From positions 1 to 28,723 of the forward strand of contig JAUWHU010000344.1 in assembly GCA_030605705.1 (NCBI GenBank): DNA of 28,723 nucleotides, given 5' to 3'. Position numbers and translations under genes: made by a program. Positions 1 through 16,406 of the stretch are shown here, piece after piece. The notes beneath the pieces were generated by a model that was given only the letters and a program-made list of their open reading frames with translations, had not been told where the DNA came from and ran no database searches. Within the stretch, counting starts at the first letter, position 1. Each line of letters starts with the position of its first letter. This stretch comes from Thermoflexia bacterium. Lineage in GTDB: Bacteria; Chloroflexota; Anaerolineae; B4-G1; SLSP01.

Positions 1-1146
1 GATGAGATCGGCACGCTGGCCCAGGCTTTCAACAGTATGACGGCTCAGTTGCGCGGCCTCATCGGCGAACTGGAGCAGCGTGTGGCCGAGCGTACGGCTG
101 ATCTGACGCGGCGTTCCGCGGAATTGGAGGCCTCGGCCCAGGTGGCTCGCGAGGCTGCGGCTATCCGGGACGTAAAGCAGCTGCTGGATGCCACTGTGCG
201 GCTTATCTCAGAACAATTTGGCTTTTACCACGCCGGCATATTTCTGCTGGACGATGCTAAGAACTACGCTACCCTGGCGGCGGCTTCCTCGGAGGGCGGA
301 CAGCGGATGCTGGCGCGCGGGCACCGGTTGGAGGTGGGACAGGTCGGCATTGTGGGATACGTCTCGGCGCAGGGTGAGCCGCGCGTCGCGTTGGATGTAG
401 GGCAGGATGCCTATTTCTTCAACAACCCCGATCTCCCAGAGACCCGTTCGGAGGCGGGCTTGCCGTTGCAGGTTCACGGTCAGGTGATCGGTGTGTTAGA
501 CGTTCAATCTGAACGAGCGGCGGCTTTCAGCGCGGAAGATGTGGAAATCTTGCAGACGTTAGCCGATCAGGTGGCGCTGGCGATTGACAATGCGCGCTTG
601 TTGGAGGAAAGCCGCCAGGCCCTGCAGGAATTGCAGACTTTGTACGGACAGCAGACCCGGAGAGCGTGGCAGGAGCGGCTGGCCGGCAAATCCATAGGGT
701 ATCTCTTCAGCGGTGGGCAGGTTGTGCCGCTGACTTCCCGCGAGACAGAGCAGACGTTGCCAGCTGAGGCCCTCCAGCCCGACCCGGAGCGGGCCGGATT
801 GCAGGCGGAGGGGCGACGGATCGTCGCGCCGGTTCCGTTGCGCGGTCAGAATGTAGGTTCCCTCGTTTTCTGGAAAGAGGAAGAACAGGAACCCTGGTCA
901 TCCGAAGATGTGGCGACGTTGGAATCCTTGAGTGTTCAAGTCGGATTGGCCCTGGAAAATGCGCGTTTGCTTGAGGATGCTCAACGTCGGGCGCAGCGTG
1001 AGTCAAGCATCCGTGAAATTGCCGATAAGGTCGGTGCTTCATTTGACCTTGAGACCGTTTTGCACACAGCGGTTGAGGAATTGAGTGTAGCCCTGGGAGC
1101 CGGCGGCGCGCTCGTTGAACTTGGTCTGCCGCAGGAGGAGAAGTGA
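1..1146 (+). CDS. 5'-truncated HAMP-GAF-GAF signalling protein with no catalytic output domain
   Basis: Frame 1 is open from base 1 (DEIGTLAQAFNSMTAQLR, the second HAMP helix), so the gene starts upstream of the window. It continues with a coiled coil (LEQRVAERT), a GAF domain (GFYHAGIFLLD...LPETRSEAGLPL...IGVLDVQS...LADQVALAIDNARL), a small second GAF, RRAQRE and a partial GAF. Stop TGA at 1144-1146. Confidence 0.9.
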   Translation, partial: DEIGTLAQAFNSMTAQLRGLIGELEQRVAERTADLTRRSAELEASAQVAREAAAIRDVKQLLDATVRLISEQFGFYHAGIFLLDDAKNYATLAAASSEGGQRMLARGHRLEVGQVGIVGYVSAQGEPRVALDVGQDAYFFNNPDLPETRSEAGLPLQVHGQVIGVLDVQSERAAAFSAEDVEILQTLADQVALAIDNARLLEESRQALQELQTLYGQQTRRAWQERLAGKSIGYLFSGGQVVPLTSRETEQTLPAEALQPDPERAGLQAEGRRIVAPVPLRGQNVGSLVFWKEEEQEPWSSEDVATLESLSVQVGLALENARLLEDAQRRAQRESSIREIADKVGASFDLETVLHTAVEELSVALGAGGALVELGLPQEEK

Positions 1147-2867
1147 TGCCGGATATAGCGCAGAAGGACACCCTCCCCGATGTGACACTTGAAACGGATT
1201 CTGAACTGCAGGCCTGGCGTACCGGCGTGCTGAACGTATTGCTAACTGTAGTATCCGTTGCCGCTACACCGGCTGTTATCATTCCCATCATCCAGGCAAT
1301 TCATAGTCCGGAGCAATGGTTGGTTGTGTCAATCTTCGTGGTGGGCTATCTGTTTGTACTCGCGTTGGCGGTTTTTCGTCATCTTGATCCTCGCCCGCGG
1401 GCCTGGGGTTTACTTATCATAGGCTACGTCGTCGGGGTGTTGTCTTTCGCGCGCGGTGGATTGGCGGGAGATGGGGGGCTGTATCTCCTGGCATTGCCGA
1501 TGCTGGCTATGATCCTCATCGGCGCGCGTTCCGGCCTGATCATGACCGCTCTCAGCCTGCTTACTTTTGCCGCATTCGGAGTTGCTGCTCACCTGGGATG
1601 GTTGGCAAACTGGCTTATCATATTAGATAACCCTCTTACCCCTGCTGCGTGGCTGGACGAAGGTATTAACTTCGCGATGCTGTTGGTAGCACTGGTAGTG
1701 TTGCAATGGTTCTTCAGCCGTTTCCAGACCCGGACTTTGCAGGCATCGAGGGAGAGGGCGACTGAGCTAAGTCAGGCTCACGTTCTCTTGCAGGAACGGG
1801 CGGAGGAACTGAGCCGGCGGGCGCAGCGGTTCGAGGCCATCGCGCGTATCTCTCGTGATACGACGGCGCTGCTTGAGCCGGAGGAAATGCTGCAACGCAC
1901 GGCCGAGTCAATCAAGGAGCAATTTGGCTTTGATGCGGTGGCCGTTTACCTGGCCGATGAGCCAGGCGGTGAGCTCAGCCTGCGCGTCACTGCCGGGGCT
2001 ACACCGCCTGTCCTGAGCGGAGCCGAAGGAGCCGCCGGCGCGCGCCTTGAGCAACTGGAGGCCGTGACTCAGACGATTCTTAGCAGCGCAGCGTACGTTG
2101 TCCAACCCTCCGCAGAAAAAGCGGAGGGGGGCCTGGGCCGGCTGGTGCTCCCGCTCAGGATACGCGACCAGACCATCGGCGCGTTAGCTGTACAGACCCG
2201 TGTACACGCCGCCTTTAGCGCTGAGGACACCGCCGCCTTGCAGATGCTGGCCGACCAGACCGCCACCGCCATTGAGAACGCCCGGCTCTTCAGCGAGAGC
2301 CAGGCCAGCCTGCGGGAACTGAACGCGCTTTATCGCCAGTACATGGCTGGGGCTTGGGAGGAGTACGTACAATCCCAACCGGAGGCTATGCATTATTCCT
2401 ATGGAAGTCTGACGTGTTCAGTCGCAACGTGGCAGGCTGCCTGCGAGCAAGCCCGCGCGTCGGGCAAAGCGGTTGCCTTCATGGGAGACGCTGGCGATGG
2501 CGGGGCCACCCGGTCGTTGGCCGTGCCGGTTGTCTTGCGCGGCCTGTCCCTCGGTGTGCTGGGCTTTCACCGTCCGGCCGGAGCCGGCGCGTGGCAGCCG
2601 GAGGAGATAGCCATGGTCGGAATGATTGCCGACCGGCTGGCGCTGGCGGTGGAGAATATCCGGTTGTTGGAGAACACCCAGCGCCGGGCGGAGCGTGAGC
2701 AGCTGGTCGGACGGATGACGACCCGCTTCACTCGCTCTCTCGACATGGAAGCCGTGCTGCGAACTGCTGTGCGCGAACTGGGACAATTACCCCAGGTGGC
2801 CGAGGTGTCTGTCCACGTGATTTCTCCTGAAGCGTCTCCGGCAGCGAGTGAGGGAGAGGAGGCTTGA
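1143..2867 (+). CDS. About 6-TM membrane sensor with tandem GAF domains and no output domain
   Basis: 574-aa ORF overlapping the previous stop (GTGATG; start 1143 or 1146). About six hydrophobic segments in aa ~29-192, then GAF (QMLADQTATAIENARL), small GAF (LAVPVVLRGLSLGVL...LALAVENIRLL), RRAERE and a partial GAF. Confidence 0.88.
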   Translation: MMPDIAQKDTLPDVTLETDSELQAWRTGVLNVLLTVVSVAATPAVIIPIIQAIHSPEQWLVVSIFVVGYLFVLALAVFRHLDPRPRAWGLLIIGYVVGVLSFARGGLAGDGGLYLLALPMLAMILIGARSGLIMTALSLLTFAAFGVAAHLGWLANWLIILDNPLTPAAWLDEGINFAMLLVALVVLQWFFSRFQTRTLQASRERATELSQAHVLLQERAEELSRRAQRFEAIARISRDTTALLEPEEMLQRTAESIKEQFGFDAVAVYLADEPGGELSLRVTAGATPPVLSGAEGAAGARLEQLEAVTQTILSSAAYVVQPSAEKAEGGLGRLVLPLRIRDQTIGALAVQTRVHAAFSAEDTAALQMLADQTATAIENARLFSESQASLRELNALYRQYMAGAWEEYVQSQPEAMHYSYGSLTCSVATWQAACEQARASGKAVAFMGDAGDGGATRSLAVPVVLRGLSLGVLGFHRPAGAGAWQPEEIAMVGMIADRLALAVENIRLLENTQRRAEREQLVGRMTTRFTRSLDMEAVLRTAVRELGQLPQVAEVSVHVISPEASPAASEGEEA

Positions 2868-2869
2868 TC

Positions 2870-4990
2870 ATGCATTGGCAGTACGTCTCTTATGCGCTAC
2901 CTTTGATTATAGCAGCGGCTATATCGTTTGCCGTCGCAGTCTTCGCCTGGCGGCGGCGTACTGCGCCTGGCGCAACAGCGCTCGCGTTGCTGATGCTGGC
3001 TGCGGCTGAATGGTCGCTGGCGTATGCCTTGCGACTGGCAAGCGTTGACTTGCCGACCAAAATCTTCTGGTCCCAGGTCCGCTACCTGGGCATTGTCGTC
3101 ACTTCAACGGCGTGGTTAGTCTTCGCGCTGCAGTACACAGGTCGCGGCACCAAGTGGTTGACACGCCGGGGCCTCGCCTGGTTGGCCGTTGAACCTCTGG
3201 TCATATTGCTGTTGGTCTGGACTAACAAGTATCACAATTTGATCTGGACCAATATTGAATTGGAAAGCGTTGGCTCATTGCTGGTGTGGCACGCATCTCA
3301 CGGCATGGCGTGGTGGGTACACACGGTGTATTCTTACCTGTTGATCCTGCTCGGTGATTTCTTGATCATCCAGGTGTTCATTCGTTCACCCCGCCTTTAC
3401 CGCGAACAGGCGGGCGCTCTATTGCTCGGGATGCTGGCGCCGCTGCTCGGAAACGTGTTGTCTGTCTTTGGCCTGATTCCCACCCCGCTGGATCTGACCC
3501 CCTTTGCTTTTACTGCCATGGGTCTGGCATTGGCCTGGGCCATCTTTCACCCGCAGCTGTTGGACATCGTGCCGGTGGCGCGCGAGGCTATCATTGAAGG
3601 CCTGCAGGATGGCCTGCTCGTGTTGGACGCGCAGGGCCGTGTCGTGGAGCTCAATCCGGCCATTCAACGGATCATTGGCCGCCCGGCTAAAGAGATAATC
3701 GGGCAACCGGCGGTTCAGGCGCTAGCCGGCTGGCCCGACCTGGCCGCACTCTGTCACGACATGACAGAGACACAGGTGGAGATCGTCCTGGGTGAGGGGG
3801 GGGCGCAGCGCATCTTTGACCTGCGCAGCTCATTCCTACGAGACTATCGGGAGCGTATCACCGGACGGCTGGTGATTCTGCGTGACATCACTGAGCGCAA
3901 GCGGACGGAGAAGGCGCTACAGCGCGGAACTATGCGCCTGCAGATGGCCGCCGATGTGGCCCGTAGTGCAGCCTTCACACACGGGTTGGATGACCTGCTG
4001 GAGCGCACCGCTAATCTGATCCAGGACCGTTTTGGGTTCTATCACGCCGCCATTTTTTTGGTAGATGAGCGGGGCGAGCATGTTATCTTGAAGGCCGCCA
4101 CCGGCGAGGCCGGCCGCGCGATGCTGGAGCGTGGATATAAGTTGGCGATGGACGAAATCAGCATTGTGGCTCGCGTTACCAGCACCGGTCAATCCCGTAT
4201 TGCTCTCGATGTGGGTGCTGACGCCGTGCATTTCGAGAATCTTCTGTTGCCGGAAACCCGTTCGGAGATGACGTTGCCGCTGCAAGTAGGTGGGCGGGTC
4301 ATCGGCGCTTTGGATGTGCAGAGCCGGGAGATGGCCGCCTTTGACGAGGACGACATGGCGGCGTCACAGATGGTGGCTGACCAGTTGGCCGTGTTCATCG
4401 AAAATGCCCGTCTGCTCCAGGAGATGGAACAGACCATGCGTGACCTGGAAGTGGCCTCTGGTCGTTACACTCAGGAGTCGTGGGCCGCGGTTACCCAGAG
4501 GCATGACCGGCCGGTGGGGTATCGTTACAATCGCTTGGGCGTCGAGCCGGTCGCCGGGCCGCGCGCGGAGGCTCTTCAAGCCTGGCAACAGGGCCGCCCC
4601 ATTGTCGCCACCGTTCAGCCAGAGGCGCAAGATAGTGGGCAATTTGCCAGTGGTGCCCTGGCTGTACCCATCACACTGCGGGGACAGGTGATAGGGTTGC
4701 TCGACCTGCGTTCTGAAGATGAGGCCTTCTCCCCGGAGACAGTCTCGCTGGTCAAGGAAGTGGCCGGCCGTCTGGCGCTGGCCATGGAGAACGCACGTCT
4801 GTTGGAGGACACCCGGCGTCGCGCTACACGCGAGCAGGTAACGCGCGAGATCACGGATAAGATGCGACAGGCTACTGATATGAAGTCCCTGTTGCGTATC
4901 ACGGCGGAGCAGTTGAACAGCGCGTTGGGAGCAGCACAGACCTACGTGCGCCTGGACACCGGGGATACCGTGGATGGCGATGCGGAATGA
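2870..4990 (+). CDS. HisKA_7TM-type 7TM sensor with PAS and tandem GAF domains; no kinase or GGDEF domain
   Basis: The N-terminus resembles the 7TM region found in front of histidine kinases (AWRRRTAPGA...AAEWSLAY...RYLGIV...WLVFALQYTG...LLVWTNKYHNLIW...HTVYSY). PAS at EGLQDGLLVLDAQGRVVELNPA...ILRDITERKR, then GAF-GAF-RRATRE. ATG 2870 follows a GAGGAGG RBS; the ORF track starts at TTG 2864. Confidence 0.88.
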   Translation: MHWQYVSYALPLIIAAAISFAVAVFAWRRRTAPGATALALLMLAAAEWSLAYALRLASVDLPTKIFWSQVRYLGIVVTSTAWLVFALQYTGRGTKWLTRRGLAWLAVEPLVILLLVWTNKYHNLIWTNIELESVGSLLVWHASHGMAWWVHTVYSYLLILLGDFLIIQVFIRSPRLYREQAGALLLGMLAPLLGNVLSVFGLIPTPLDLTPFAFTAMGLALAWAIFHPQLLDIVPVAREAIIEGLQDGLLVLDAQGRVVELNPAIQRIIGRPAKEIIGQPAVQALAGWPDLAALCHDMTETQVEIVLGEGGAQRIFDLRSSFLRDYRERITGRLVILRDITERKRTEKALQRGTMRLQMAADVARSAAFTHGLDDLLERTANLIQDRFGFYHAAIFLVDERGEHVILKAATGEAGRAMLERGYKLAMDEISIVARVTSTGQSRIALDVGADAVHFENLLLPETRSEMTLPLQVGGRVIGALDVQSREMAAFDEDDMAASQMVADQLAVFIENARLLQEMEQTMRDLEVASGRYTQESWAAVTQRHDRPVGYRYNRLGVEPVAGPRAEALQAWQQGRPIVATVQPEAQDSGQFASGALAVPITLRGQVIGLLDLRSEDEAFSPETVSLVKEVAGRLALAMENARLLEDTRRRATREQVTREITDKMRQATDMKSLLRITAEQLNSALGAAQTYVRLDTGDTVDGDAE

Positions 4991-5045: not shown

Positions 5046-7496
5046 ATGGAAAAATACGCTGCTTTACGAGTACGGGGAAGCATCAGGACAAAGCTGCTGG
5101 CTGTGCTGTTGGGCATGGTGATAACGGCAGCGGTTATTATCTCCTACGTGTCCGTCTTGTCGTTGCTGGAGACGGGACGAGAAGCTCAACAGGCCAGCAG
5201 CGCCACGTTGCGTCTGCAGATCGAGGATTACCTCCGGCAGCTCACTGCCACTAACGCTCAGGAAAACGACCGTATTTTGCAGGGCGCACAGTACGGCGCG
5301 GAGAGCGTGGCCAAGTATGCGGCACGCATCTTTGAGAACCCCGAGGTCTTTGGGAGCGGGGCTTACTGGCTGGCCGAGGAGCACATGTTCGAAGGGCCTG
5401 GAGGACAGTATATCAATGGCCCAGATGAGGTTTCTTCTATCTTCATCCCTAACTTTGTAGAGCTCAACGCTGACTTGCTGACGAATTTGCAGGTGGGAGC
5501 GCATGTGGAATCGCTTTTCCCCCAAACCTACGAAGGAGACCCCCATACGGTGGCCCTTTACCTGGCGACGAAAGAAGGGATCACTTGGTACTACCCCAAT
5601 GTGGATCTGGGAGCCATTCTTCCGCCAGACTGGGATGTCACTCAGCGTCCGTGGTATGTTGCCGCCGTGGAGGACAACCCGCAGCAAGGAACAGTGTGGA
5701 CGTCGGTGTACGAGGATGCCACCGGTCAGGGCTTATTGGTCACGGCGGCGGTACCCGTTTACACCGACCAGGGTGAGTTCGTCGGGGTCGTTGGCGTGGA
5801 CGTGACATTGGGGGACATCAGTGATAGCGTCAAGGCCACCCGGTTGCTCGGGGGAGGTTACTCTTTTCTCGTGGATGAGACAGGACACACCATCGTCCTG
5901 CCACAGCAAGGTTATTTGGATATTTTGGGACGCGCTGTTGAATCCGACGAATTCGGGACGGATCTGGCCGAGGCGCCGGAGGAATTTGCGCCTGTATTGG
6001 CTAAAATGGTGGCCGGCGCAGCGGGTTTTGACGCTTTAGAGGTGAACGAAAAGGAATTGTTCATCGCTTACGCCCCTGTGGAAAGCACTGGCTGGAGCCT
6101 GGGCAGTGTGGTGGAAGCAGGAAAAGTCATGGGGGCCGTGGCGGGCTTGCAAGCGGAACTGGAAACCTCAACCAAATCCCTGATGCTGAAACGCCTTTTG
6201 CCCCTGGGCGTGGGGCTTGTCGTGATCATGGCGGTGATAGGGATCATGGTCACTAACCGTCTAGTCACCCCGCTGCAGGAATTGGCCACGGCAGCGCAAC
6301 AACTGGGGGCGGGGGAATGGGATGTCCTGCTCCCCTCGGTGGGCGAGGACGAGATCGGCGTGCTGACACAAGCTTTTGCCACCATGAGGACGCAACTGCG
6401 GGAGTTGTTGGGAGGCCTGGAGCAACGCGTGGCTGAGCGCACCCGTAACTTGCAGGCGGCCGCTGAGGTTTCCCATGCTACCACTTCCATCCTTGATCCC
6501 GACCAATTGCTCCCTCAGGTGGTAGAGCTGGTTCGTGAGCGTTTTGACCTGTACTACGTGGGCTTGTTCCTGCTTGATGAGAAAGAGAAATTCGCCGTCT
6601 TGCGGGCGGGCACAGGCGAGGCCGGACGGCAGATGCTGTCCAGGGAGCACAAGCTGGAAGTGGGAGGGAACTCGATGATCGGCCAGTGTGTGGCTACGGA
6701 TAAGGCCGATATCCAGCTGGATGTAGGAGAGGCCGCCGTGCGTTTCGATAATCCGCTGTTGCCGGAGACCCGTTCGGAGATGGCGCTGCCCCTGCGCTCG
6801 CGCGGGAGGGCTATCGGCGCGATGACTGTGCAGAGCACCGTGGCCGCAGCCTTCGATGAGACGGATATCGCCGTGTTGCAGACGATGGCTGACCAGCTGG
6901 CAAACGCCATCGCCAATGCCGAGCTCTACACCGCCGCGCAGGCCGCTCTGGCGGAGGCGCGGGCCACCCAGAGGCATTACCTGGTGCAGGCCTGGGCTGA
7001 ATACTTGCAAACGACCACCGCTGACCGCTACGAGACCTCCGGGCCGGACGTCGCTCCCCTGGGAGAGACGGTGTTGCCCGAGGTGCGACAGGCGATGGCG
7101 GAACGCAGGACATTGGTACGGGGAGGGGATGGTGAGAAAATACCCGCCCTGATAGCGCCCGTCATGTTGCGCGACCATCCCCTGGGCGTCGTGGGAGTCA
7201 GGATAGCCGAGGGCCGGCAATCGTGGAGCGAAGAGGAGATCACTTTAGTTGAGGCCATCGCCGAGCAATTTGCCCTGGCGGCGGATAACCTGCGTCTCGT
7301 TGAAGCCACCCAGCGCCGCGCCGCTCGCGAGCGACTTGTGGGCGAGATCAACGCCGATATTCGCTCGCAGCTGGAGATCGAAACTGTCCTGGAGCGGGCG
7401 CTGATGGAGTTGGGAAAGGCATTAGATGCGGATCGGGCAGCAGCGTATCTGGGGACGGCAGATGAAATGTCCCCGGCGGAGCGGAGGCAGGAATGA
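5046..7496 (+). CDS. TM-dCache_1-TM-HAMP-GAF-GAF signalling protein with no output domain
   Basis: Two TM helices flank a ~350-aa extracytoplasmic region with dCache_1 signatures (QRPWY...WTSVYEDA...VTAAVPV...VGVVGVDV; YSFLVDETG; IAYAPVESTGWSL). HAMP (PLQELATAAQQLGAGEW...EDEIGVLTQAFATM), then GAF-GAF-RRAARE. GAGGAG RBS at 5031-5036. Confidence 0.9.
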   Translation: MEKYAALRVRGSIRTKLLAVLLGMVITAAVIISYVSVLSLLETGREAQQASSATLRLQIEDYLRQLTATNAQENDRILQGAQYGAESVAKYAARIFENPEVFGSGAYWLAEEHMFEGPGGQYINGPDEVSSIFIPNFVELNADLLTNLQVGAHVESLFPQTYEGDPHTVALYLATKEGITWYYPNVDLGAILPPDWDVTQRPWYVAAVEDNPQQGTVWTSVYEDATGQGLLVTAAVPVYTDQGEFVGVVGVDVTLGDISDSVKATRLLGGGYSFLVDETGHTIVLPQQGYLDILGRAVESDEFGTDLAEAPEEFAPVLAKMVAGAAGFDALEVNEKELFIAYAPVESTGWSLGSVVEAGKVMGAVAGLQAELETSTKSLMLKRLLPLGVGLVVIMAVIGIMVTNRLVTPLQELATAAQQLGAGEWDVLLPSVGEDEIGVLTQAFATMRTQLRELLGGLEQRVAERTRNLQAAAEVSHATTSILDPDQLLPQVVELVRERFDLYYVGLFLLDEKEKFAVLRAGTGEAGRQMLSREHKLEVGGNSMIGQCVATDKADIQLDVGEAAVRFDNPLLPETRSEMALPLRSRGRAIGAMTVQSTVAAAFDETDIAVLQTMADQLANAIANAELYTAAQAALAEARATQRHYLVQAWAEYLQTTTADRYETSGPDVAPLGETVLPEVRQAMAERRTLVRGGDGEKIPALIAPVMLRDHPLGVVGVRIAEGRQSWSEEEITLVEAIAEQFALAADNLRLVEATQRRAARERLVGEINADIRSQLEIETVLERALMELGKALDADRAAAYLGTADEMSPAERRQE

Positions 7497-9292
7497 CAAC
7501 GCAAATACCGGTGCAGAGGAAGGGGTGGCGGGCCTGGTGGAGTGCACAATGGGAACGTCTCGTCAGCGTGGAGGTTACCGACGCGGAAGAGGCGCGCCTG
7601 GGACGACTTTTTAACACATTGATGGTGGTCACCATCGCATTCATGCTTACCTTGTCCGCGATTCTCACCGCGATGGGACCATTGGGATTGCTCTCTACCT
7701 CTGGGACTTTGCGAAGAGCGGCCTTTTCTCTGGTTGTGATTCCCTTTGCCATTTTTTGCCTGATCCAGACGCGCCGTGGGCGCGTCCGGGCGATGTCCAA
7801 ATTATACGTCTGGGGTACCTTTGGCTTTATCGCGTTGGCCTGCGCACTTTTTAATGGCTCCGCTTCACCCGCTTTTATACTCTTTTTATGGGTCGTCGCG
7901 GTGGCCGGCGTGCTGCTCGCACCTTACTACGCGTTGCTGCTGAGCGGCGTGGTATTGTTATATTATGGCGCGCTTTGGTTTGCGGAGCGACAGGGATTCT
8001 ATACCCCTCTCCTGCCAACGGATGAAACGGCGTATAGATTCATGAATCAGTCTTTTACATTCCTCATACTGATCTTCGTGGCAGGCTTGATAACCTACCT
8101 GAACATGAGAAGCCTGCGCCAGACGCTGGCGAACCTGCGCGGCACTACGGACGAGCTGGAGAAGAGCCGGCGTCTTTTGGAAACCCGTGTGACGGAACGC
8201 ACGGAGCAGCTGCAGCAACGTTCGGAACAATCTCAGGCCATCGCGGAGTTCACCCGTTCTCTGGCCGGCTTGCGGGACTTAGGCCGGTTGTTGGATTCTG
8301 CGGTCATACTGATAGCCGAACGCTTGCATTACTATGATGTCGCTATCTTCCTGCTCAATGATTCAGAAGAATGGGTGCTCTTGAAAGCGGCATCCTCCGC
8401 AGGGGGTAAGCGCATGGTGGAAAGAGGGTACCGGTTGCGTGTGGGTTCCCCGGAGATCATCGGCCAGACGGCCGCCACGGCCCGCCCGCAGGTCGCCGTG
8501 AATGAGGGAGACGCTGCACTCAACTTCCAATTACCCGAGCTCCCCGCAGCTCAGTCGGAACTTGCGCTCCCGTTGCTTTCTGGCGGAAGATTGCTTGGGG
8601 TATTGGATATCCGGTGTGATCAGATCGTCCACTTTGCCGGGGAGGACATCCAGATTTTAGATATCTTGGCTGGCAGCCTGGCCGCGATGATTACGAATAC
8701 TCGATTGCTTCAGGAGACGCAGCAGGCTCTGGAACGACTGGAGCATTACCAGGAAGAAGAGGTAATACAGGGCTGGTATCGGGCGCTGGCGCGTCGTAAT
8801 AAGCGACTGGGCTATTTTTATGATCGGATCACGGTGCGTCCGGAGCTGCCCGACGCCGCTTTGATGCCTGTGGACCTCCAAAATTTAACCGGGTTGCAGG
8901 TGCTGGAATCGGAAGGGCAATACCTGCTGCTGGCCCCTCTCCGCGTACAACAGCGGACCTTAGGGGCGTTATCTTTCAGGGCTTCACGTCCCTGGACGGA
9001 GGAGGAGCAACGACTGGTAGGGAGTGTGGTGACACAATTGGGACTGGCCCTGGAGAACGCGCGGCTGCTGGAGGATACCCGCTTGAGCGCACAGCAGGAG
9101 AAGGCGCGGAGCGAGATCGTGGGGCGGGTGCGTTCCTCGATGCAGGTGGATACCGTGCTGCGTAGCGCGACCGAGGAGCTGGGACGGGCGTTGGGAGTTG
9201 AGCGCGTGCGCATCCAGCTGCTTCCGCCTGGCCGGCCGGTAGATTCGGAAGAGGCGTCTGTTTCACCAGCCTCCCCGGGGGAATCTGGATGA
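7493..9292 (+). CDS. About 6-TM membrane sensor with tandem GAF domains and no output domain
   Basis: ATGA overlap with the upstream stop. About six hydrophobic segments in aa ~42-203, coiled coil (LETRVTERTEQL), GAF, small GAF (LGLALENARLL) and a terminal partial GAF (VDTVLRSATEELGRALG). Confidence 0.88.
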   Translation: MTTQIPVQRKGWRAWWSAQWERLVSVEVTDAEEARLGRLFNTLMVVTIAFMLTLSAILTAMGPLGLLSTSGTLRRAAFSLVVIPFAIFCLIQTRRGRVRAMSKLYVWGTFGFIALACALFNGSASPAFILFLWVVAVAGVLLAPYYALLLSGVVLLYYGALWFAERQGFYTPLLPTDETAYRFMNQSFTFLILIFVAGLITYLNMRSLRQTLANLRGTTDELEKSRRLLETRVTERTEQLQQRSEQSQAIAEFTRSLAGLRDLGRLLDSAVILIAERLHYYDVAIFLLNDSEEWVLLKAASSAGGKRMVERGYRLRVGSPEIIGQTAATARPQVAVNEGDAALNFQLPELPAAQSELALPLLSGGRLLGVLDIRCDQIVHFAGEDIQILDILAGSLAAMITNTRLLQETQQALERLEHYQEEEVIQGWYRALARRNKRLGYFYDRITVRPELPDAALMPVDLQNLTGLQVLESEGQYLLLAPLRVQQRTLGALSFRASRPWTEEEQRLVGSVVTQLGLALENARLLEDTRLSAQQEKARSEIVGRVRSSMQVDTVLRSATEELGRALGVERVRIQLLPPGRPVDSEEASVSPASPGESG

Positions 9293-10392
9293 ACTGTCAC
9301 TGGTGGCATCTTGTGTTGATCGTTGGGTTGCTCTGCCCATTAGGGGCGGCCTGTTCTGGCGGCCCGGCAACGGAGACGCCGGCGCCCCCGGAATCTGTGA
9401 CATCGCTTCCCATGCTCTCCAAACCCTTGCGCCTGTTCTTAGTTTACAGCTATTCTCCTGCCGCGCCCCGGTCAGGTGAAATCCGCCCTGGAATCCTGGA
9501 GACGCTCGCCCGTCAGGGATACAACCTCTTTGAGGACACGCTCGAATTGGAGGAGTTTTCACTGAATGTCACTGCAGAGACTACCCCTGGAGAGCTGGCC
9601 GCCCTGGTGCAGGAGGTTGTCCAGGCCATCCAGAACTATGACCCGGACGTGGTGATCGTCTTAAATGATGAGGCGGCTCGCGCGGTGATCCCTGCTTACC
9701 CAGATTCCAATCAGCCTTTTGTGTTTTGCGGCCTCAAGGGTAACCCGCAGGATTATGATCTTAACCGGCCCAACGTGACCGGTGTGTTGGAGCACCCTTA
9801 TCCACTCCAGACGGCCAGGATGGCTATGGAGATAACCCAGAAGCAGGATAGTTTTATGGTCCTGGGGGATGACTCCCCGATGGGCAAGACGATTATCTCG
9901 GCGGTTTACCGGCAGCTCATAACCGATACGACGTTGGAGAGCCGGCCGGACCTGCGTATTACCTCGCGGTGGGAGGAATGGCAGCAGCTGGTACTCAGAG
10001 GGGCAGATGCCTCGGATTTCATCCTATTGGTGGGATATAGCGGTCTGAAAGACCGCACGGAGAATACCATCTCTGACCGGGAGGCGTTGCAGTGGACCCT
10101 GAGACACGCCCCTGTCCCTGTCTTTGGCTTGTGGACGGAGACTACGCGTGAGGGGGCGGTGGGCGGGCTGGCACTTACCCACTATGAACAGGGGGTGACT
10201 GCGGCCGAGATGGTGCTGCATATTGCGCAGGGCGCAGCTCCTTCGTCAATCCTGGCTGCGCAACCTGCTCGTAATATCCTGACCCTGAATTTTGCAGCAG
10301 TCGAACATTGGGAATTGCGTATACCCCTGGTATTTGTGACCACGGCGCGTATTTACCGCCGGTTTCCAGCTCCTGAAGAGGGAGGTCGGTGA
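9289..10392 (+). CDS. Solute-binding lipoprotein (ABC_sub_bind-like, periplasmic-binding-protein type I fold)
   Basis: Signal peptide with lipobox-like LGAAC (Cys22) and a Pro/Thr linker. ABC_sub_bind-like motifs: PDVVIVLNDEA, PFVFCG, NVTGVLE, PVFGLW...GAVGG...EQGVTAAEMVLHI, LTLNFAAVEHWELRIP. ATGA overlap with the upstream gene. Confidence 0.75.
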   Translation: MNCHWWHLVLIVGLLCPLGAACSGGPATETPAPPESVTSLPMLSKPLRLFLVYSYSPAAPRSGEIRPGILETLARQGYNLFEDTLELEEFSLNVTAETTPGELAALVQEVVQAIQNYDPDVVIVLNDEAARAVIPAYPDSNQPFVFCGLKGNPQDYDLNRPNVTGVLEHPYPLQTARMAMEITQKQDSFMVLGDDSPMGKTIISAVYRQLITDTTLESRPDLRITSRWEEWQQLVLRGADASDFILLVGYSGLKDRTENTISDREALQWTLRHAPVPVFGLWTETTREGAVGGLALTHYEQGVTAAEMVLHIAQGAAPSSILAAQPARNILTLNFAAVEHWELRIPLVFVTTARIYRRFPAPEEGGR

Positions 10393-13300
10393 TGTCCTTG
10401 AAGTCCTTGAGCTTGCGTTGGCGCGTGACTTTAATTGCGGTGCTTTTGCCTTTGCTGTTCTTGATGCCGGCATTCTTTTTCATTGGGCAAAAGTCCCGCA
10501 CTGCCTACCGGGAGGCCCGGTTGAGCAAAGGTGAGATGATCACCAGTCAGCTGGGGCAGGCGGTGAACTCGGTAACGCCCTACATCTCCTCTATTTACGA
10601 TGTCCCTGACCTGGAATCTTACCTCCGCGAGAGCATCGCGGATCAGCCTGAGATGGTGTTCTCCGCGCTGGTGCTGGATACCGGGTTTGTGGTTTACCAT
10701 TCTCTGCCAGGACTCGGTGGCACTTACGTCTCTGAGTTAGCTTATTTGGACCAGGAAGGGCTTATCAGACGGGTCGTCCATCCCTATGACGAAGTCTACC
10801 TGGTGGTGCGGAAATTACCGCTGCCCGGCAACGAGGAACGTTTTCTGTATGCCGTCGTGGCCGAGTCGGTGGAGATGGTGGATCCTCCTTTGATATCATT
10901 GTTGCCGGTTTTGGTAGGCATGAGTGTGGCCCTGATCCTGGTAGTCATGATACAGCTCTTCATGCGCCGTTGGATTCTCACGCCGTTGAGCCAACTGGCG
11001 GAAGGGGCGGCCATCGTCGGGGCCGGCGACCTGGCTTACGAGATCACCTTGCCGGGAACGGACGAGTTCGGCTTTCTGGCGCGTTCCTTCAATGATATGG
11101 CCCGGCGTTTGCAAGGGCTGGTGACTTCGTTGGAGCAACAGGTGTCGGAGCGCACCCGTGACCTGGAGAAGAAGAGTCGCCAGCTGGAGGCGGTGGCCTT
11201 TGTCAGCCGGGAAGTGGCGAATATTCGCAGTGTTTCTCTGTTCCTGGAGGCGACGGTGGCGGCAATCTCCAGACAGTTTGGACACTATCACACCGGCATC
11301 TTTTTGATTGACGACAAACGGGAATGGGCGGTATTGCAGGCTGCTTCTTCTGAGGGCGGACAGCGTATGTTATCTCGCCGGCATCGTCTGCGGGTGGGGC
11401 AACAGGGTATCGTGGGTACCGTCGCCGGTACCGGCAAAGCGCACATCGCCTTAGACGTGGGTGTGGACGCGGTGTGGTTCGATAATCCCGATTTGCCGGA
11501 CACACACTCGGAGATTGGCCTGCCGCTGAAGGACCTGGAGGGACAGGTGATCGGCGTCCTCGACGTGCAGAGCGCGGAGACGCAGGCCTTTAGTGCTGAG
11601 GACATCGAGACGCTGCAGTTGCTGGCCGATCAGCTCTCCATTGTGTTGCGAAACGCCCGGCTTTTCGAGCGCACCCAGAGTGCGTTGAGCCAATTGGAAG
11701 ATTTGCAGTGGAGCTACAGCCGCGAGGGTTGGGCACGGATCATGAACCAGGGTCGCCCGAGGGCTTACGAATACGACTCTGTTTCCGTGCAACCTGTGTT
11801 GCCCTTGCCTGCCCCGCGAATTTTGTCGGACGGCACGTTCCCCCGGCAGATGGTGATGACGGACGGCGCCGCGGCGCTGGTGGAGCCGATGCGCTACCGT
11901 GACCAGACAATCGGTCTGGTGGCTCTCTCCGATCCGCACCGTGTCTGGACCGCAGAGGAAAGAGGGCTGGTGCAGAGCGTGGTTGATCAGGTGGGGATCG
12001 CGTTGGAGAACGCGCGTCTCTTTGAGGAAACCCAAAATACGGCCCGGCAACAGGCATTGATGAGCCAGGTACTGCAGACGACGGCGATGGTGAGAGACCC
12101 TGACGTTGCACTCCGCGAGATCACCGGCATTCTGGCGCGGGGTCTGGGCATGGCGGTGGGTATTTTTACCTTCCCGCGCCCCGATGCCACAGAGGTACAG
12201 TTGCAAGCGTTTGTTTTGCCTGACGGTGAATCGCTTTTGCCTGAAGGTGAGCTCTATTCTCTTCCTCCCGATCTACGGATTTTCTTCCAGGGCCTGGAGG
12301 AGCCGGAATTGGGTAAAATGCTCCCCGTTTTGGGGAAGATATCGCCGGGAGAAGCGTACAATCTGGAGCAGGTCTTGTACGTCGCCATCAGGACGGCGGC
12401 GACCCGTGAGGGTTTCTTAGTCTTGCTCCAGCGCCGGGGCGACATATTACTTGATCCTGAGACGCGCTCGCTGGCCCGCAACCTGGCCGGCCAGGTTGCG
12501 ATGATGCTGGCAAATATGCATCTTCTTGAGGAGACCCAGCGCCGCTCGACGGAGATGGAGGCTTTGTATGATATCTCACTGCGCTTCGGAAAAAATCTGG
12601 AGCTGGAGGCGATCCAGAATCTCCTGGTGAATCAAGCCAGGGAGCTGTTATCTGCTGATGCCGGAGGTTTCTTAGTCTACCACGAACATGGAAATATGTT
12701 GGATTTTTCCGTCGCCCACGGGTCTATCCATGCCCCCCAGTGGAGGGCGAAACCGGGGGAGGGACTGGTGGGGCAGGTATTCCAGCAGGCTAAAACCATC
12801 CGGATTGACGATTACGCGGCATGGGCAGATTATGAGGAGGCGGCGGAAGAATCTCCCGCCGTGCAGGCGGTACTGGCCGTGCCCCTGAGCGTCTCCTGGG
12901 GTGTGGCCGGCGTTTTGCTCGGTTTGCGAGAGAGAGGAAAACCGCCCTTTGATCAGGCGGACGTTCGTCTGGCGGAGCTCCTCGCAGCTCAGGCGGCGGT
13001 GGCATTGGAGAGTGCGCGTCTTTACCAGGAGAGCACCAAACGGGCGCGCGACTTGCAACAACTTTACGACGCGGGTTTGGCCCTGGTCTCTCTGTTGGAT
13101 GTGGACGAGGTCTTGAACACGGGCGCGGATTGGGCGCGTCGCCTCTTTGACGGGGAGACGGCGACCATTTTCTACTGGGATGAGGCCCTGGGGCAATACC
13201 GGGCCGGTCGCTCGCTGGCTTCGTCCAAGTGGGAAACGACCTCTGCTATGCCCCGGTCCGGTGGGATCACCCATACTATCCGTGAAACCGGCAAGCCTGT

Positions 13301-14834
13301 GTTGATCTACGATGACCGGATCACTGCCCGGAATCCCGCCGAACTGATTGAGCTCGGCCTTATTTCTCAGATCGGGGTGCCTGTACGTTTAGGCCGACAG
13401 ATCGTCGGCGCGTTCTATGTACACAGTGCCGAGGTCGGCCACTTTAGAGAGGAAGATCTGTACCTTTTGGAGTTCTTAGGTACCCAACTGGCCTCGGCGG
13501 TTCAGAATGCGCAGCTGTTTGGACAGACGCAGGCCGCGCTGGGTGTTGTCGAAATGCAGGTGCATTATCAGACCAATGTGGCGCAATCCACGGCCTTGCT
13601 GGCGGAGCGCGGGACACAGGCCTTAGAGGAAGTGCTGGCTCTGCTGGGTGATGCTAGCCACGCGGGCCGGGTTGTTTACTTCGAGACACAGGAGGATGTT
13701 GAGGGGCCGTACTGGAGTCTCGCTTCGGAATGGGCTGCCCCTGGCGTGGGATCGAAGCTGGAAAACTCGCTATTACAGGCTTTGCGCCCGGAGCAGTTCT
13801 CGGAATGGTCGCTCAAATTCAAGGAGAGCGGCATGGTGCAGACCTTCTTGAGCAGTGCGTCACCTGTGGAGCGCCAGATCCTGGAGGCGTTGGGGATTCA
13901 ATCCCTGCTCCTGGTACCCGTGGCGGGCAATCATCCTACCGTTCCGGGTTTCGTGGGAATACTTGACCTGGAACAGGAACGCGAATGGGAGAAAGAGGTA
14001 CGGGTGGTGATGCAGACAGTGGGCGTGGCCCTCTCCAGCACGCTGGCTCGTGAGTGGCTCTTCAGTCAGGTGCAGGACGCCCTCACCGAGACCGAGGTAC
14101 TTTACAAGACCGGCACCGCCTTGAACACGGCGCAGAGCTACGACGATATTCTCGAAGCGCTGTGTAGCCACACGATTCTCGGCCAGGGCGCGCACGATGT
14201 GACGATCGAATTTTATGACCGCCCCTGGACGGAAACGGAGCGACCTGAGTGGATTGAGATTCTCGCGCGCTGGGGCCGGCTGCCTCCGGAGAAGGTGCGG
14301 CAGCGTTATCACATGGATAAGACGGACATAGTTCTGTTCTCTGACAGGGTGGGGGTTGTCGAGGACGTGCCGAACGACTCACGCTTAGATTCCCGGGCCC
14401 GCGACTTCTTCTTCAAGTACCTGGGGGCCAGGAGCGCGGTTTTCGTCCCCCTGATCGTCGGTGGTCAGCGGATTGGTACCATTATCGCATTATATCCTGA
14501 ACCGACCACGGTATCGGAGGTTGAGCAGCGTCGCTTGATGAACCTGGCGGCTCAAGCTGCGGTGGCGATCCAGAACCGTTACCAGCTACAGGCTACCGCC
14601 GCGCGGGCGCGCCGGGAGCGGTTGGCCCGTGAGATCATCGGGAATATCCAGGGCGCAGTTGATGTCCAGGGAGTACTGCAGGCGGCGGCCCGCGAGCTGG
14701 GGCGGGCACTTCGCGCTCCGCACACCTCTATCCAGGTTGGCGGTCTGGGCCAGCGACGGCACAGGAAGTTAGGCACGGGGGAGCTTGTCCCTAAACCGGA
14801 TGACTCATCCCCGGTTGTGAGCTCGGACGAGTAG
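10389..14834 (+). CDS. Large TM-periplasmic-TM-HAMP protein with about seven GAF domains and no output domain
   Basis: 1481 aa. Two TM helices, HAMP (PLSQLAEGAAIVGAGDL...DEFGFLARSFNDM), repeated GAF C-terminal helices (VLRNARLF, ALENARLF, MLANMHLL, ALESARLY, AVQNAQLF, AIQNRYQL), ending ARARRERL plus a partial GAF. No H-box/HATPase, GGDEF, EAL, HD-GYP or STAS domain seen. Confidence 0.9.
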   Translation: MMSLKSLSLRWRVTLIAVLLPLLFLMPAFFFIGQKSRTAYREARLSKGEMITSQLGQAVNSVTPYISSIYDVPDLESYLRESIADQPEMVFSALVLDTGFVVYHSLPGLGGTYVSELAYLDQEGLIRRVVHPYDEVYLVVRKLPLPGNEERFLYAVVAESVEMVDPPLISLLPVLVGMSVALILVVMIQLFMRRWILTPLSQLAEGAAIVGAGDLAYEITLPGTDEFGFLARSFNDMARRLQGLVTSLEQQVSERTRDLEKKSRQLEAVAFVSREVANIRSVSLFLEATVAAISRQFGHYHTGIFLIDDKREWAVLQAASSEGGQRMLSRRHRLRVGQQGIVGTVAGTGKAHIALDVGVDAVWFDNPDLPDTHSEIGLPLKDLEGQVIGVLDVQSAETQAFSAEDIETLQLLADQLSIVLRNARLFERTQSALSQLEDLQWSYSREGWARIMNQGRPRAYEYDSVSVQPVLPLPAPRILSDGTFPRQMVMTDGAAALVEPMRYRDQTIGLVALSDPHRVWTAEERGLVQSVVDQVGIALENARLFEETQNTARQQALMSQVLQTTAMVRDPDVALREITGILARGLGMAVGIFTFPRPDATEVQLQAFVLPDGESLLPEGELYSLPPDLRIFFQGLEEPELGKMLPVLGKISPGEAYNLEQVLYVAIRTAATREGFLVLLQRRGDILLDPETRSLARNLAGQVAMMLANMHLLEETQRRSTEMEALYDISLRFGKNLELEAIQNLLVNQARELLSADAGGFLVYHEHGNMLDFSVAHGSIHAPQWRAKPGEGLVGQVFQQAKTIRIDDYAAWADYEEAAEESPAVQAVLAVPLSVSWGVAGVLLGLRERGKPPFDQADVRLAELLAAQAAVALESARLYQESTKRARDLQQLYDAGLALVSLLDVDEVLNTGADWARRLFDGETATIFYWDEALGQYRAGRSLASSKWETTSAMPRSGGITHTIRETGKPVLIYDDRITARNPAELIELGLISQIGVPVRLGRQIVGAFYVHSAEVGHFREEDLYLLEFLGTQLASAVQNAQLFGQTQAALGVVEMQVHYQTNVAQSTALLAERGTQALEEVLALLGDASHAGRVVYFETQEDVEGPYWSLASEWAAPGVGSKLENSLLQALRPEQFSEWSLKFKESGMVQTFLSSASPVERQILEALGIQSLLLVPVAGNHPTVPGFVGILDLEQEREWEKEVRVVMQTVGVALSSTLAREWLFSQVQDALTETEVLYKTGTALNTAQSYDDILEALCSHTILGQGAHDVTIEFYDRPWTETERPEWIEILARWGRLPPEKVRQRYHMDKTDIVLFSDRVGVVEDVPNDSRLDSRARDFFFKYLGARSAVFVPLIVGGQRIGTIIALYPEPTTVSEVEQRRLMNLAAQAAVAIQNRYQLQATAARARRERLAREIIGNIQGAVDVQGVLQAAARELGRALRAPHTSIQVGGLGQRRHRKLGTGELVPKPDDSSPVVSSDE

Positions 14835-14852
14835 GGTGTCCTAAACGAAAAT

Positions 14853-14993
14853 ATTACTACTCAGGCCGGTTTATTTCAGACTTCCGAGGTCTACAAATCC
14901 GCCGCTCGGTGGCGGAATCCCGGTCTTGGTAAGTGCTTTGACAAGCAAACCCTGTACAAAGACCTCGGAGGTCTATCACGCCTGAGTAGTAAC
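14853..14993. mobile_element. 141-bp MITE-like element with 14-bp terminal inverted repeats and an 8-bp target-site duplication
   Basis: Left end ATTACTACTCAGGC (14853-14866) and right end GCCTGAGTAGTAAC (14980-14993) match 13/14 as inverted repeats. The direct repeat ACGAAAAT lies immediately outside both ends (14845-14852, 14994-15001). Internal palindromic pair AGACTTCCGAGGTCT (14878-14892) / AGACCTCGGAGGTCT (14960-14974). Confidence 0.8.
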
Positions 14994-15027
14994 ACGAAAA
15001 TCAACTATCAAGCAAGGAGGGCCGGGA

Positions 15028-15504
15028 GTGGGTATTGATCCTGCTCTTACACACGATCTTTTACAGCGGCTGCGGGAGCACCGTGAATCTTTGGTCTCCG
15101 GCCTATGCAGCGCGCTGCATGAAACGACCTTCTCCAATCACTTACTTATTGTTCCTCGTCGCCTGAACGCCATCGGACGGGAGGAGGTTGATACTTTCAT
15201 CGCCTTTCTGGCGCGAGGGGAGGATGACGAGCAGGCGGTACGCGCGCATGGCCGGCGTTTGGCAGTGGAGGGGTTGGGGCACAGCTCCGTTTTGGGGATG
15301 ACCGAGGCCCTCCGTCGCACCTGTTGGGATAGTGTTTTCCCGGATGATAGGATGCTGCATCACCTTTTGGCGATCTGTGGTTATTACCTCAACGCCTTGA
15401 TGGCGGGATACATGTCCGGACGGGAAGAGTCCATCCTGCGAGAGCAGGAACGCACCCGCCGGGCGTATTTGCGTGTCCGCGAACGACACGCCGACCAGAG
15501 GTAA
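15028..15504 (+). CDS. Stand-alone globin-like helical protein (RsbR N-terminal / RsbRD_N-like), probably non-heme
   Basis: AAGGAGG RBS at 15014-15020 and GTG start; 158 aa, apparently all-helical. The HGRRLAVEGLG...V segment and the C-terminal GYMSGREESILREQ helix resemble globin-fold sensor domains and the RsbR linker helix. Confidence 0.65.
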   Translation: MGIDPALTHDLLQRLREHRESLVSGLCSALHETTFSNHLLIVPRRLNAIGREEVDTFIAFLARGEDDEQAVRAHGRRLAVEGLGHSSVLGMTEALRRTCWDSVFPDDRMLHHLLAICGYYLNALMAGYMSGREESILREQERTRRAYLRVRERHADQR

Positions 15505-15546
15505 CTGCACCATGAGATTCGCATTTGGAAGAGGAGGATATTCTAT

Positions 15547-15560
15547 GCTTGAGTAGTAAC
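15547..15560. repeat. Solo copy of the MITE right terminal repeat
   Basis: GCTTGAGTAGTAAC matches GCCTGAGTAGTAAC (14980-14993) at 13/14 positions, in the same orientation. Confidence 0.5.
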
Positions 15561-15617
15561 CTTTCGCGGTGAGTTGTCAATCTATAGCTTGAACAATCTA
15601 CATTTAAGGAGAGAAAG

Positions 15618-16406
15618 ATGTCTGAAACGACGATAGTTGACATTAATATTCCCAATGCCGGGCGGGTTTACGACTATGTATTGGGAGGCAGCCACAACTT
15701 TGAATCCGATCGCCAGGCTGCCGAATATATGATCAGTCTGGTACCCTCAACTCGCAAGTGGGTGCGTATGTTGCGCATGTTCTTGAACGAGGCCACCCAC
15801 CGGTTGTCCGAAGAAGGATTTGAGCAGTTTCTGGACCTTGCTTCAGGCTTGCCCACCGCCGATCACATCCACCAATTGCTGCCTAATGCGTCGGTCGTCT
15901 ACACGGACAACGACCCTGTGACGGTAGCCTACTCTCAAGAGCTCATCGGGGATAACGAGAAGGTGCGTTACTTGGATGGCGACATCCGTAACGTAGCAGC
16001 CATTCTCAACTCTCCAACCATGGACGAATTTTTTGGAGCAGATCACAAGGTTGCTATTGGTTTCAATGCGGTGACGTGTTTCCTTTCCCATGAGGAGATC
16101 AAGCACATCATGAGCACCTTGTATGAATGGGCTGCTCCGGGTAGCAAAGTGTTTGCGAGCCTTGAGACGAAGCTGCCTGATGCCATGACGCCCAAGATGC
16201 AACAATTCGTGGATATGTTTGACCAGATGGGAAGCCCTTATCATTTTTTGACCTTAGAAGAGTGTCGAGAACTGATTAAGCCCTGGCAACTTGATGAGCA
16301 GGGCTTCCGTCCGCTCAGCGAATGGTTGGGCATCCAGGATCAGATCACAGAGGAAGATCGGGAAGACGTCGGACTGGAGTTCTACGGCGTGTTCCTGGTG
16401 AAATAA
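15618..16406 (+). CDS. SAM-dependent methyltransferase, Methyltransf_19 (PF04672)-like
   Basis: Family-typical N-terminus PNAGRVYDYVLGGSHNFESDRQAA, motif I QFLDLASGLPT, VVYTDNDP, YLDGDIRN and APGS. AAGGAG RBS upstream. Confidence 0.88.
   Translation: MSETTIVDINIPNAGRVYDYVLGGSHNFESDRQAAEYMISLVPSTRKWVRMLRMFLNEATHRLSEEGFEQFLDLASGLPTADHIHQLLPNASVVYTDNDPVTVAYSQELIGDNEKVRYLDGDIRNVAAILNSPTMDEFFGADHKVAIGFNAVTCFLSHEEIKHIMSTLYEWAAPGSKVFASLETKLPDAMTPKMQQFVDMFDQMGSPYHFLTLEECRELIKPWQLDEQGFRPLSEWLGIQDQITEEDREDVGLEFYGVFLVK

Follow-up and report, generated by a model that had tools for sequence, protein, structure and literature searches.

A run of GAF-tailed receptors in an Anaerolineae genome and the globin-kinase phosphorelay on which it may converge

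Contig JAUWHU010000344.1 of the Thermoflexia bacterium assembly GCA_030605705.1 (Chloroflexota; Anaerolineae) carries a run of signalling genes in which varied membrane sensors end in one common cytoplasmic tail. We analysed the whole stretch of 28,723 nucleotides, hereafter the window, together with the corresponding loci of related genomes. According to the list of open reading frames, positions 1-16406 hold nine genes (g1 to g9), all on the + strand, which make up six membrane sensors, one lipoprotein, one further protein of 158 aa and a methyltransferase of family PF04672. Four junctions (1143/1146, 7493/7496, 9289/9292 and 10389/10392) are 4-nt overlaps of stop and start codon, and g3, which starts at TTG 2864 or at ATG 2870, adjoins the stop at 2867. 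The initial annotation of this DNA, made from the letters alone, had described six sensor genes and a lipoprotein with overlapping stop and start codons, and the reading frames and junctions are as it described them.

The receptors differ in their inputs and are alike in everything that follows. The first, g1 (1..1146), has lost its N-terminus at the contig start and retains the end of a HAMP domain, a GAF tail and a terminal segment, the cap (Pfam). A MASE11 membrane sensor opens g2 (1143..2867), and a HisKA_7TM membrane domain followed by PAS opens g3 (2864..4990); both continue into GAF tail and cap without an output domain. The same tail and cap follow dCache_1-HAMP in g4 (5046..7496) and a six-transmembrane (six-TM) sensor, weakly matching 6TM_PilS, in g5 (7493..9292). 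The lipoprotein g6 (9289..10392) has an ABC_sub_bind-like solute-binding fold (Pfam) and precedes g7 (10389..14834), a TM-HAMP receptor of 1481 aa with about 5-6 GAFs and the common cap at its end. Next come an inverted-repeat element resembling a miniature inverted-repeat transposable element (MITE; 14845..15001), the stand-alone sensor globin g8 (15028..15504; 158 aa, no Pfam match), and g9 (15618..16406), an S-adenosylmethionine (SAM)-dependent methyltransferase of family PF04672 (Methyltransf_19). A repeat-rich spacer (16407..16966) closes the run. All six receptors lie above the Pfam cut-off for GAF (PF01590, PF13185 or PF13492) with 53-220 bits. Scans with Pfam and NCBIfam found in none of them a HisKA domain with its histidine, HATPase_c boxes, a receiver (REC), GGDEF, EAL, HD-GYP, PP2C, STAS, MCPsignal or a DNA-binding domain, and PF00015 (MCPsignal) matched no receptor at E <= 0.01.

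The array appears to extend beyond the contig. The end of the reverse complement of contig C15 equals the window start over an exact 141-nt overlap, which points to adjacency and is not proof of it. C15 supplies the dCache_1-HAMP N-terminus of g1, giving a joined protein of 751 aa, and carries one more GAF-cap protein and a Peripla_BP_6 solute-binding protein. Counted with C15, the array would comprise at least seven co-directional membrane receptors with varied sensor modules, some beside solute-binding lipoproteins. A contig from ENA record ERZ2433807 (L091) is about 90 % identical at the DNA level to window 4774-12514 and has g4-g7 in common with it; it carries a different dCache-HAMP-GAF receptor upstream and has neither g2 nor g3, so the receptor content of the array turns over quickly. 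Tried as a bridge to C15, the same contig was rejected, its first receptor being a paralogue of 43 % identity and not g1. An exact-protein look-up of g2 returned no record.

Alignment of the tails reveals an identical layout in all receptors: an S-helix leads into a full GAF, after which a helix bearing a conserved Trp precedes a reduced GAF-like module; then come a long helix that carries the RRAxRE motif and the cap, about 45 residues that resemble the first helix-helix-strand of another GAF and at which every receptor stops. We modelled the g4 tail with AlphaFold2 (AF2) from a 39-sequence alignment, at a predicted local distance difference test (pLDDT) of 79.5. The model runs from a full GAF through a long helix into a small module of three strands and on to the long RRAxRE helix and a terminal helix; the last predicted strand of the cap is unformed in the monomer. 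Foldseek searches with it returned GAF structures only, both single ligand-binding GAFs and tandem-GAF regulatory segments; its first GAF aligned to GAF structures at a TM score of about 0.8 and lies nearest in fold to ligand-binding GAFs such as cAMP-bound Lcd1. Since Pfam, NCBIfam and Foldseek on the model gave GAF alone, a hidden output in the tail was rejected, and the view of the initial annotation that the tails have no recognisable output stands. The tail-model matches include the tandem-GAF modules of PDE2/5/6 and CyaB2, which likewise place GAF-GAF pairs on long parallel helices and regulate a downstream activity. Unlike them, the receptors have nothing downstream; three strands are all that is left of their second GAF, and the protein ends after the first helix-helix-strand of a would-be third GAF.

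Proteins with this tail are numerous. Searching with the g4 tail yielded 4397 proteins at E <= 1e-10 among 8000 candidates scored, mostly from Anaerolineae and labelled just 'GAF domain-containing' or 'PAS domain' proteins of Anaerolineae/Chloroflexota metagenome-assembled genomes (MAGs). The majority have neither HisKA nor HATPase, and the tail forms the protein C-terminus in 75 of the roughly 103 best matches. Its modules also occur inside true kinases. This last observation would suit receptors that are decayed histidine kinases, non-functional remnants whose catalytic ends have been lost. Such decay is extremely unlikely, given that the frames are intact, that stop and start codons mostly overlap, and that the conserved cap ends thousands of proteins in many genomes, with the stop at a constant structural position.

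A kinase is nevertheless encoded elsewhere in this genome. Searching for g8 in a sequence set of 61 relatives revealed a second g8 copy here, as the N-terminal domain of a 2152-aa protein on contig C567. Pfam divides this protein into a g8-like globin, eight GAFs, HisKA, HATPase_c and two REC domains, and its H, N, G1 and G2 boxes are intact (SHELRTPL, NLLGNAAKFT, DSGVGI and GGTGLGL); it has all the parts of a hybrid histidine kinase. Its eight GAFs resemble the receptor tails as closely as these resemble each other. Contig C567 ends 162 nt upstream of the kinase gene. The first 154 nt of its reverse complement, leaving 8 nt before the kinase start codon, are the dispersed repeat of about 155 nt of which the window holds a copy at 16813-16966, within the repeat-rich spacer.

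An independent metagenome contig of the Joint Genome Institute (L069), found by exact-protein look-up of g9, joins the two. It is 99.9 % identical to window 13526-16772, spanning the end of g7, the MITE-like element, g8, g9 and a 366-nt spacer; past this match it is 100 % identical to C567 10316-8150, into the kinase, which starts about 500 nt after the methyltransferase. Identity with the window stops at 16772, from where the window contig goes on to a convergent RelA/SpoT gene and L069 to the kinase. The gene next after the kinase on C567 shares 71-76 % identity with the one that follows the orthologous kinase in three relatives, and the window genes beyond 17000 have no counterpart near the kinase loci of the same three. 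From these sequence joins we conclude that the kinase follows g9 in this population. The continuation of the window into RelA/SpoT would therefore be either a mis-join at the repeat or a strain variant. The repeat in the 16407-16966 spacer is the likely point of mis-joining or rearrangement, and in the organism itself the signalling locus may not continue into the right-hand 12 kb of the window. At 154 nt the repeat exceeds the ordinary short-read span, and the single Logan contig stops inside it.

Several short-repeat families, of repetitive extragenic palindromic (REP) or MITE-like type and including GACCTCCGAGGTC hairpins, occupy the spacers 16407-16966 and 14845-15001 and many other contigs of this genome. 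Near-identical copies of the 154-nt element lie on at least 15 contigs, and it is frequently the place where a contig breaks off. Short repeats probably explain the fragmentation of the assembly into 605 contigs. In the stretch 14700-17300, promoter and terminator scans found no more sites than in shuffled sequence.

The gene order around the kinase is conserved. In the 20-40 kb fetched from each of seven relatives, which represent three families of the order, the locus runs along a single strand: an array of four to nine cap-ended receptors, whose types include MASE11, six-TM and dCache-HAMP, leads to a g6-like lipoprotein, a long g7-like receptor and the methyltransferase. In some of them a stand-alone g8 comes next, and the series closes with a kinase of the layout g8-multiGAF-HisKA-HATPase-REC-REC. 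The g6-like gene followed by the g7-like gene is kept as a pair in four genomes and three further loci, and the g7-like protein is the last receptor before the methyltransferase in relatives. The g8-domain gene that follows the methyltransferase is a hybrid kinase in seven genomes and in several of the loci L035-L054, and kinase-less in other loci. These kinase-less g8-domain proteins consist of globin, GAFs and cap, and in some cases the kinase is the next gene (L053).

Broader surveys gave the same association. Scanning 185,579 species genomes for g9 yielded 34 loci. In the 17 Chloroflexota loci with a g8-profile match, the gene after the methyltransferase starts with a g8-like domain; three other Chloroflexota loci stop at the methyltransferase, and two (L067 and L068) have no g8 match in the short sequence at hand. 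Upstream sequence of the Chloroflexota loci, where present, encodes GAF-tail proteins, cap-ended in most, and the named records are MAGs of Anaerolineae, Thermoflexales/Thermoflexia and Ardenticatenaceae. Among 301 genomes drawn across the class, the g8 profile occurs in 33 and PF04672 in 66. The methyltransferase adjoins a same-strand g8 match in 26 of the 33 g8-positive genomes (at least 13 families), a count from related genomes that is not to be read as a probability, and it lies upstream of the g8 match in all 26 except on the contig of this window. Of the remaining g8-positive genomes, two have the genes on different short contigs and five yielded no PF04672 gene. The g8 domain hardly occurs outside the class: of 401 phylum-level genomes, 12 gave matches, most of them weak. 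The linkage to a globin-like gene and a PF04672 gene, on which the initial annotation had built, is thus borne out by both surveys.

Mapping 20 of these loci separated a core from its additions. Families f42 (seven genomes) and f23 have a short g8-GAF-kinase, about 560-630 aa long, after the methyltransferase, and f13 has a g8-kinase of about 395 aa without GAF. In the ten genomes of f42, f23 and f13, the sequence upstream of the methyltransferase, covered for up to 13 kb, yielded no GAF-tail protein; G333 (f42), equally without a GAF-tail protein over that distance, has two g8 genes following before the contig end. Receptor arrays were present in the mapped loci only where the g8 protein is long and multi-GAF, in ten other families. 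Because the pair is kept in f42, f13 and f23 without a detected array, the constant partner of the methyltransferase is the globin-kinase and not the receptors. At the level of gene content and order, this shows the methyltransferase and the globin-domain protein to be an ancient conserved core, to which arrays are added where the kinase is multi-GAF. The presence of receptors seems to track the number of kinase GAF modules, a correlation that is suggestive among lineages that are not phylogenetically independent.

Arrays also recur without the core. We examined the neighbourhoods of three unrelated cap-ended receptors from the tail search and found no methyltransferase and no g8 match in any of them. 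In two, the array ends in a GAF-HisKA-HATPase-REC kinase, followed by a PALP-REC protein (see below) and an EamA transporter; the third is a 24-kb stretch of eleven consecutive genes (ten GAF, one solute-binding) whose array end lies beyond view. An array with a terminal GAF-type kinase is therefore independent of the methyltransferase-globin pair. Two receptor arrays contain a ParA/MinD-like ATPase (AAA_31; L021:3819-4733 in G039, and L095:12322-13092). ParA-like proteins position chemoreceptor clusters, which the AAA_31 ATPases in these arrays recall.

The initial annotation had proposed a self-contained, kinase-less array that signals by contacts and in which the PF04672 enzyme methylates the receptors as CheR does. 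The proposal accounts for tails without outputs, for one tail common to many inputs and for a methyltransferase linked to the array, and within the window the absence of a kinase holds. For the locus it does not: both in relatives and in L069 the methyltransferase has a hybrid kinase after it, and the neighbourhood comparison that the same annotation suggested did uncover a recurring kinase, as a GAF-type hybrid kinase closes arrays wherever the end is visible. The analogy to CheR is unlikely to hold either, since the enzyme belongs to PF04672 and not to the CheR family, no MCPsignal domain accompanies it, and it stays with the globin-kinase in lineages without a detected array. We consider a kinase-less system of this kind very improbable.

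The AF2 model of g8, built from a 52-sequence alignment, reaches a pLDDT of 96 and consists of five helices, the last spanning residues 107-157. An exhaustive structural search ranks the RsbR N-domain 2bnl first (Z 14.3), followed by phycobilisome linker domains, globin-coupled sensors, the Moorella stressosome RsbR and pXO2-61; 3zta scores Z 12.2, 3pmd and 3pmc are also among the matches, and photocobilin 8j2w is 14th (Z 11.0). All 50 matches listed are globins or phycobiliproteins, Foldseek agrees weakly, and a precomputed match to RsbRD_N is weak. The protein thus has an RsbR-type non-haem globin fold (2bnl, 3zta), in agreement with the initial description of it as globin-like. In alignments of 12 and 52 sequences none of the invariant or near-invariant columns is a His, which makes a non-haem globin the most likely identity of g8; a haem globin was rejected, the proximal His not being conserved. 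The conserved stretches are a T-x-F-S-N-R...P loop and G-R-E-E-x-I-L-x-E-Q-E in the last helix. The family is small, with 208 representative clusters at E <= 1e-3 out of 1.8 billion proteins. Its members are stand-alone proteins of about 150 aa or the N-terminal 160 aa of GAF/PAS proteins, most of them histidine kinases; Pfam scans of the fused relatives found GAF or PAS plus kinase domains and never STAS.

Two known non-haem globin systems invite comparison. Photoglobin, a non-haem globin of bacterial signalling proteins, occurs stand-alone or fused to GAF/kinase domains and is nearly always coupled to B12-binding domains (PMC8717448). Globins of the g8 type share the stand-alone and fused arrangements, whereas their constant partner is the PF04672 methyltransferase; no B12-binding domain was found in the window or in the Pfam-scanned relatives and neighbours, and with this partner absent identity as a photoglobin was rejected. 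In Bacillus anthracis, the stand-alone non-haem globin sensors pXO1-118 and pXO2-61 (SkiA), paralogues of the kinase's own sensor, modulate the kinase BA2291 (PMC5862856). The likeness here is that g8 and the N-terminal domain of the C567 kinase are paralogues, with 39 % identity. The differences are that lineage and kinase architecture are unrelated, that a methyltransferase is linked to the locus, and that the present system is known from sequence and models.

The methyltransferase g9 scores 161.2 bits against PF04672 (cut-off 26). Structures of this family have been solved (3giw, 3go4 and 2qe6) with function unknown, and our literature search on PF04672/DUF574 returned nothing relevant, the literature on the family being almost nil. 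Relatives in Myxococcota (Myxococcus, Corallococcus and Polyangiaceae) share 48-63 % identity with g9, which is high across phyla and makes horizontal transfer of the methyltransferase between Myxococcota and Chloroflexota possible. They have no g8-like or GAF-tail neighbours and are for that reason uninformative on the function of g9.

A predicted complex of g9 with g8 scored 0.57, against 0.11 for the best of three controls. The mark above which we count a prediction was reached by 58 of 80 solved complexes and by 2 of 110 mismatched pairs; scores of 0.60 or under yet above the mark came from 7 of the 80 solved complexes and from both passing mismatches, so that support for this complex is weak. 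The predicted interface involves conserved parts of both proteins, namely loop 31-44 and helix 139-146 of g8, which lie in its conserved stretches, and the conserved residues 22-26 and 81-82 of g9, which, judged by motif positions, probably lie near the SAM site. Because gene order gives a strong prior, we deem binding of g9 to g8 likely, and we put forward methylation of the globin by g9 as a hypothesis. For this step alone an alternative is that the PF04672 enzyme acts on a small molecule and that the methylated signal is bound by the globin pocket, no protein being methylated. PhcB, for instance, makes fatty-acid methyl esters for the PhcS kinase. Non-haem globin sensor domains of the pXO1-118/pXO2-61 class, among the fold matches of g8, can bind lipids, the methyltransferase-kinase gene pair is tightly conserved, and PF04672 has no known protein substrate. 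The predicted interface, weakly supported as it is, speaks for protein contact instead, covering conserved residues of both partners, and the locus has no recurring fatty-acid or other biosynthetic genes. A small-molecule role is a possibility to be taken seriously, and in our judgement a doubtful one.

Downstream of the kinase, one gene recurs that could carry the signal further. PALP-REC is a threonine-synthase-like pyridoxal phosphate (PLP) enzyme with a C-terminal receiver, an SFKDR lysine motif and an N-terminal Cys4 ribbon (L022:3477-6549 and L093:18698-21368, for example). Its gene directly follows the kinase in five loci, and the next gene is often that of a REC-kinase or of an EamA exporter. 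The copy in the present genome is on contig C588 at 8153-11133, adjoining a REC-kinase gene. PALP-REC is a candidate enzymatic output of the relay.

We read window 1-16406 as the receptor part of a conserved signalling locus of Anaerolineae (Chloroflexota) that converges on a globin-kinase phosphorelay, and we give this reading a probability of roughly 0.55. The receptors would be co-sensors whose ligand-induced changes pass to the kinase through contacts of their GAF/coiled-coil tails with the homologous kinase GAFs, so that many inputs would converge on one phosphorelay. The methyltransferase would dock on the globin domain and either methylate it, with candidate acceptors in the G-R-E-E-x-I-L-x-E-Q-E helix, or make a methylated ligand; methylation or ligand would then set the gain of the kinase or report SAM status. 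The stand-alone g8 may modulate the kinase as a mimic of its sensor domain, in the manner of pXO2-61/SkiA, and the PALP-REC enzyme would be the likely downstream target of the relay.

Several points weigh against convergence on the kinase. The window's own contig runs from g9 into the convergent RelA/SpoT gene, and the join between methyltransferase and kinase depends on a second assembly across a repeat, together with synteny; that assembly, L069, differs from the window by a 67-nt stretch within the repeats. In this genome g8 precedes the methyltransferase, unlike in most relatives, and in five loci (among them loci of G126 and G288) the methyltransferase is followed by kinase-less, cap-ended g8-domain proteins. 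The adjacency of receptors and kinase could come from duplication of GAF modules, contact between tail and kinase being our inference. As to the enzyme, the g9-g8 score falls in a band where, by the tool's own account, predictions that lack a strong prior fail more often than they hold, PF04672 substrates are not established, and no demethylase was seen in the locus.

Should the receptors be independent of the kinase, the ligand of their GAFs would be a small molecule or nucleotide, they would work through other partners or as buffers, and their clustering would reflect only tandem duplication and frequent reshuffling. The differing array content of relatives about 90 % identical fits this idea, as do the 24-kb stretch of eleven genes with no kinase in view and the nearness of the first GAF to ligand-binding GAFs. 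We nonetheless think it unlikely: visible array ends always carry a GAF-type hybrid kinase, the genes are co-directional with stop and start codons that often overlap, and the kinase GAF modules match the tails as closely as the tails match each other. A more far-reaching version of the preferred reading, convergence on the kinase, would make the locus a new kind of sensory complex, in which output-less receptors dock one per GAF module on a scaffold kinase, the haem-less globin is covalently methylated by the PF04672 enzyme so that inputs are integrated and adapted to as by chemoreceptors but outside chemotaxis, and a receiver-fused PLP enzyme takes the place of a transcription factor as the output; we rate this full scheme as rather improbable.

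Among known systems, the closest in type are multi-sensor networks such as RetS/LadS-GacS, in which a hybrid kinase phosphorelay is served by accessory sensors. As there, one kinase carries HisKA, HATPase and two REC domains, the other membrane sensors would act by contacts, and solute-binding proteins stand beside some sensors. Unlike there, the sensors have no kinase core and end in a common tail of GAF, small GAF and cap, they form tandem arrays of four to more than ten genes, and the kinase repeats the tail module several times. With MCP/CheR/CheA arrays the locus shares varied inputs to one non-catalytic cytoplasmic module, a linked SAM methyltransferase and a single kinase, but it has no MCPsignal domain, CheR-family enzyme, CheW or CheA, and the conserved partner of the methyltransferase is the kinase's globin domain, not the receptors. 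RsbR and the haem globin-coupled sensors (AfGcHK, DosC and HemAT) resemble g8 in combining a sensor-globin fold with a long C-terminal signalling helix. The g8 family differs from the haem sensors in having no conserved proximal His, and from RsbR in that g8 has no STAS domain, that its type of domain is fused to GAF-HisKA, and that its similarity to RsbRD_N is weak. Of the likeness to the stressosome drawn in the initial annotation, the RsbR-type globin fold remains, but a stressosome is rejected because there is no STAS domain. We conclude that the system is a two-component phosphorelay with unusual accessory parts, distinct from MCP/CheR arrays, stressosomes, haem globin-coupled sensors and photoglobin systems. 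As had been supposed from the sequence, no characterised system of this architecture came to light: our literature searches brought up no published account of the tail architecture, of the g8 family, of the methyltransferase-globin-kinase pairing or of output-less GAF/MASE11 receptors.

The remainder of the window lies on the - strand. A long RelA/SpoT homologue with HD_4, RelA_SpoT, TGS, AH-RIS and ACT domains occupies 17238-19397. It is followed at 19718-28544 by a glycosylation locus with no relation to the signalling genes, which encodes an NTP_transferase, a secreted 430-aa repeat protein, an LPG_synthase_TM-like membrane protein, a class I methyltransferase, two GT2 and two GT4 glycosyltransferases. 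Across the whole window, no Rfam family, riboswitch or other RNA, scored as high as its gathering threshold.

Sediments, hot springs, digesters and activated sludge all harbour abundant Anaerolineae, whose signalling has hardly been studied. The present analysis assigns thousands of output-less 'GAF domain-containing proteins' to a concrete, testable circuit and defines a small, previously unannotated globin family. It also gives the PF04672 methyltransferases their first functional context, a fixed partnership with a globin-kinase. If the receptors do converge on one kinase by pairing of GAF modules, the locus would represent a new design for a many-input phosphorelay.

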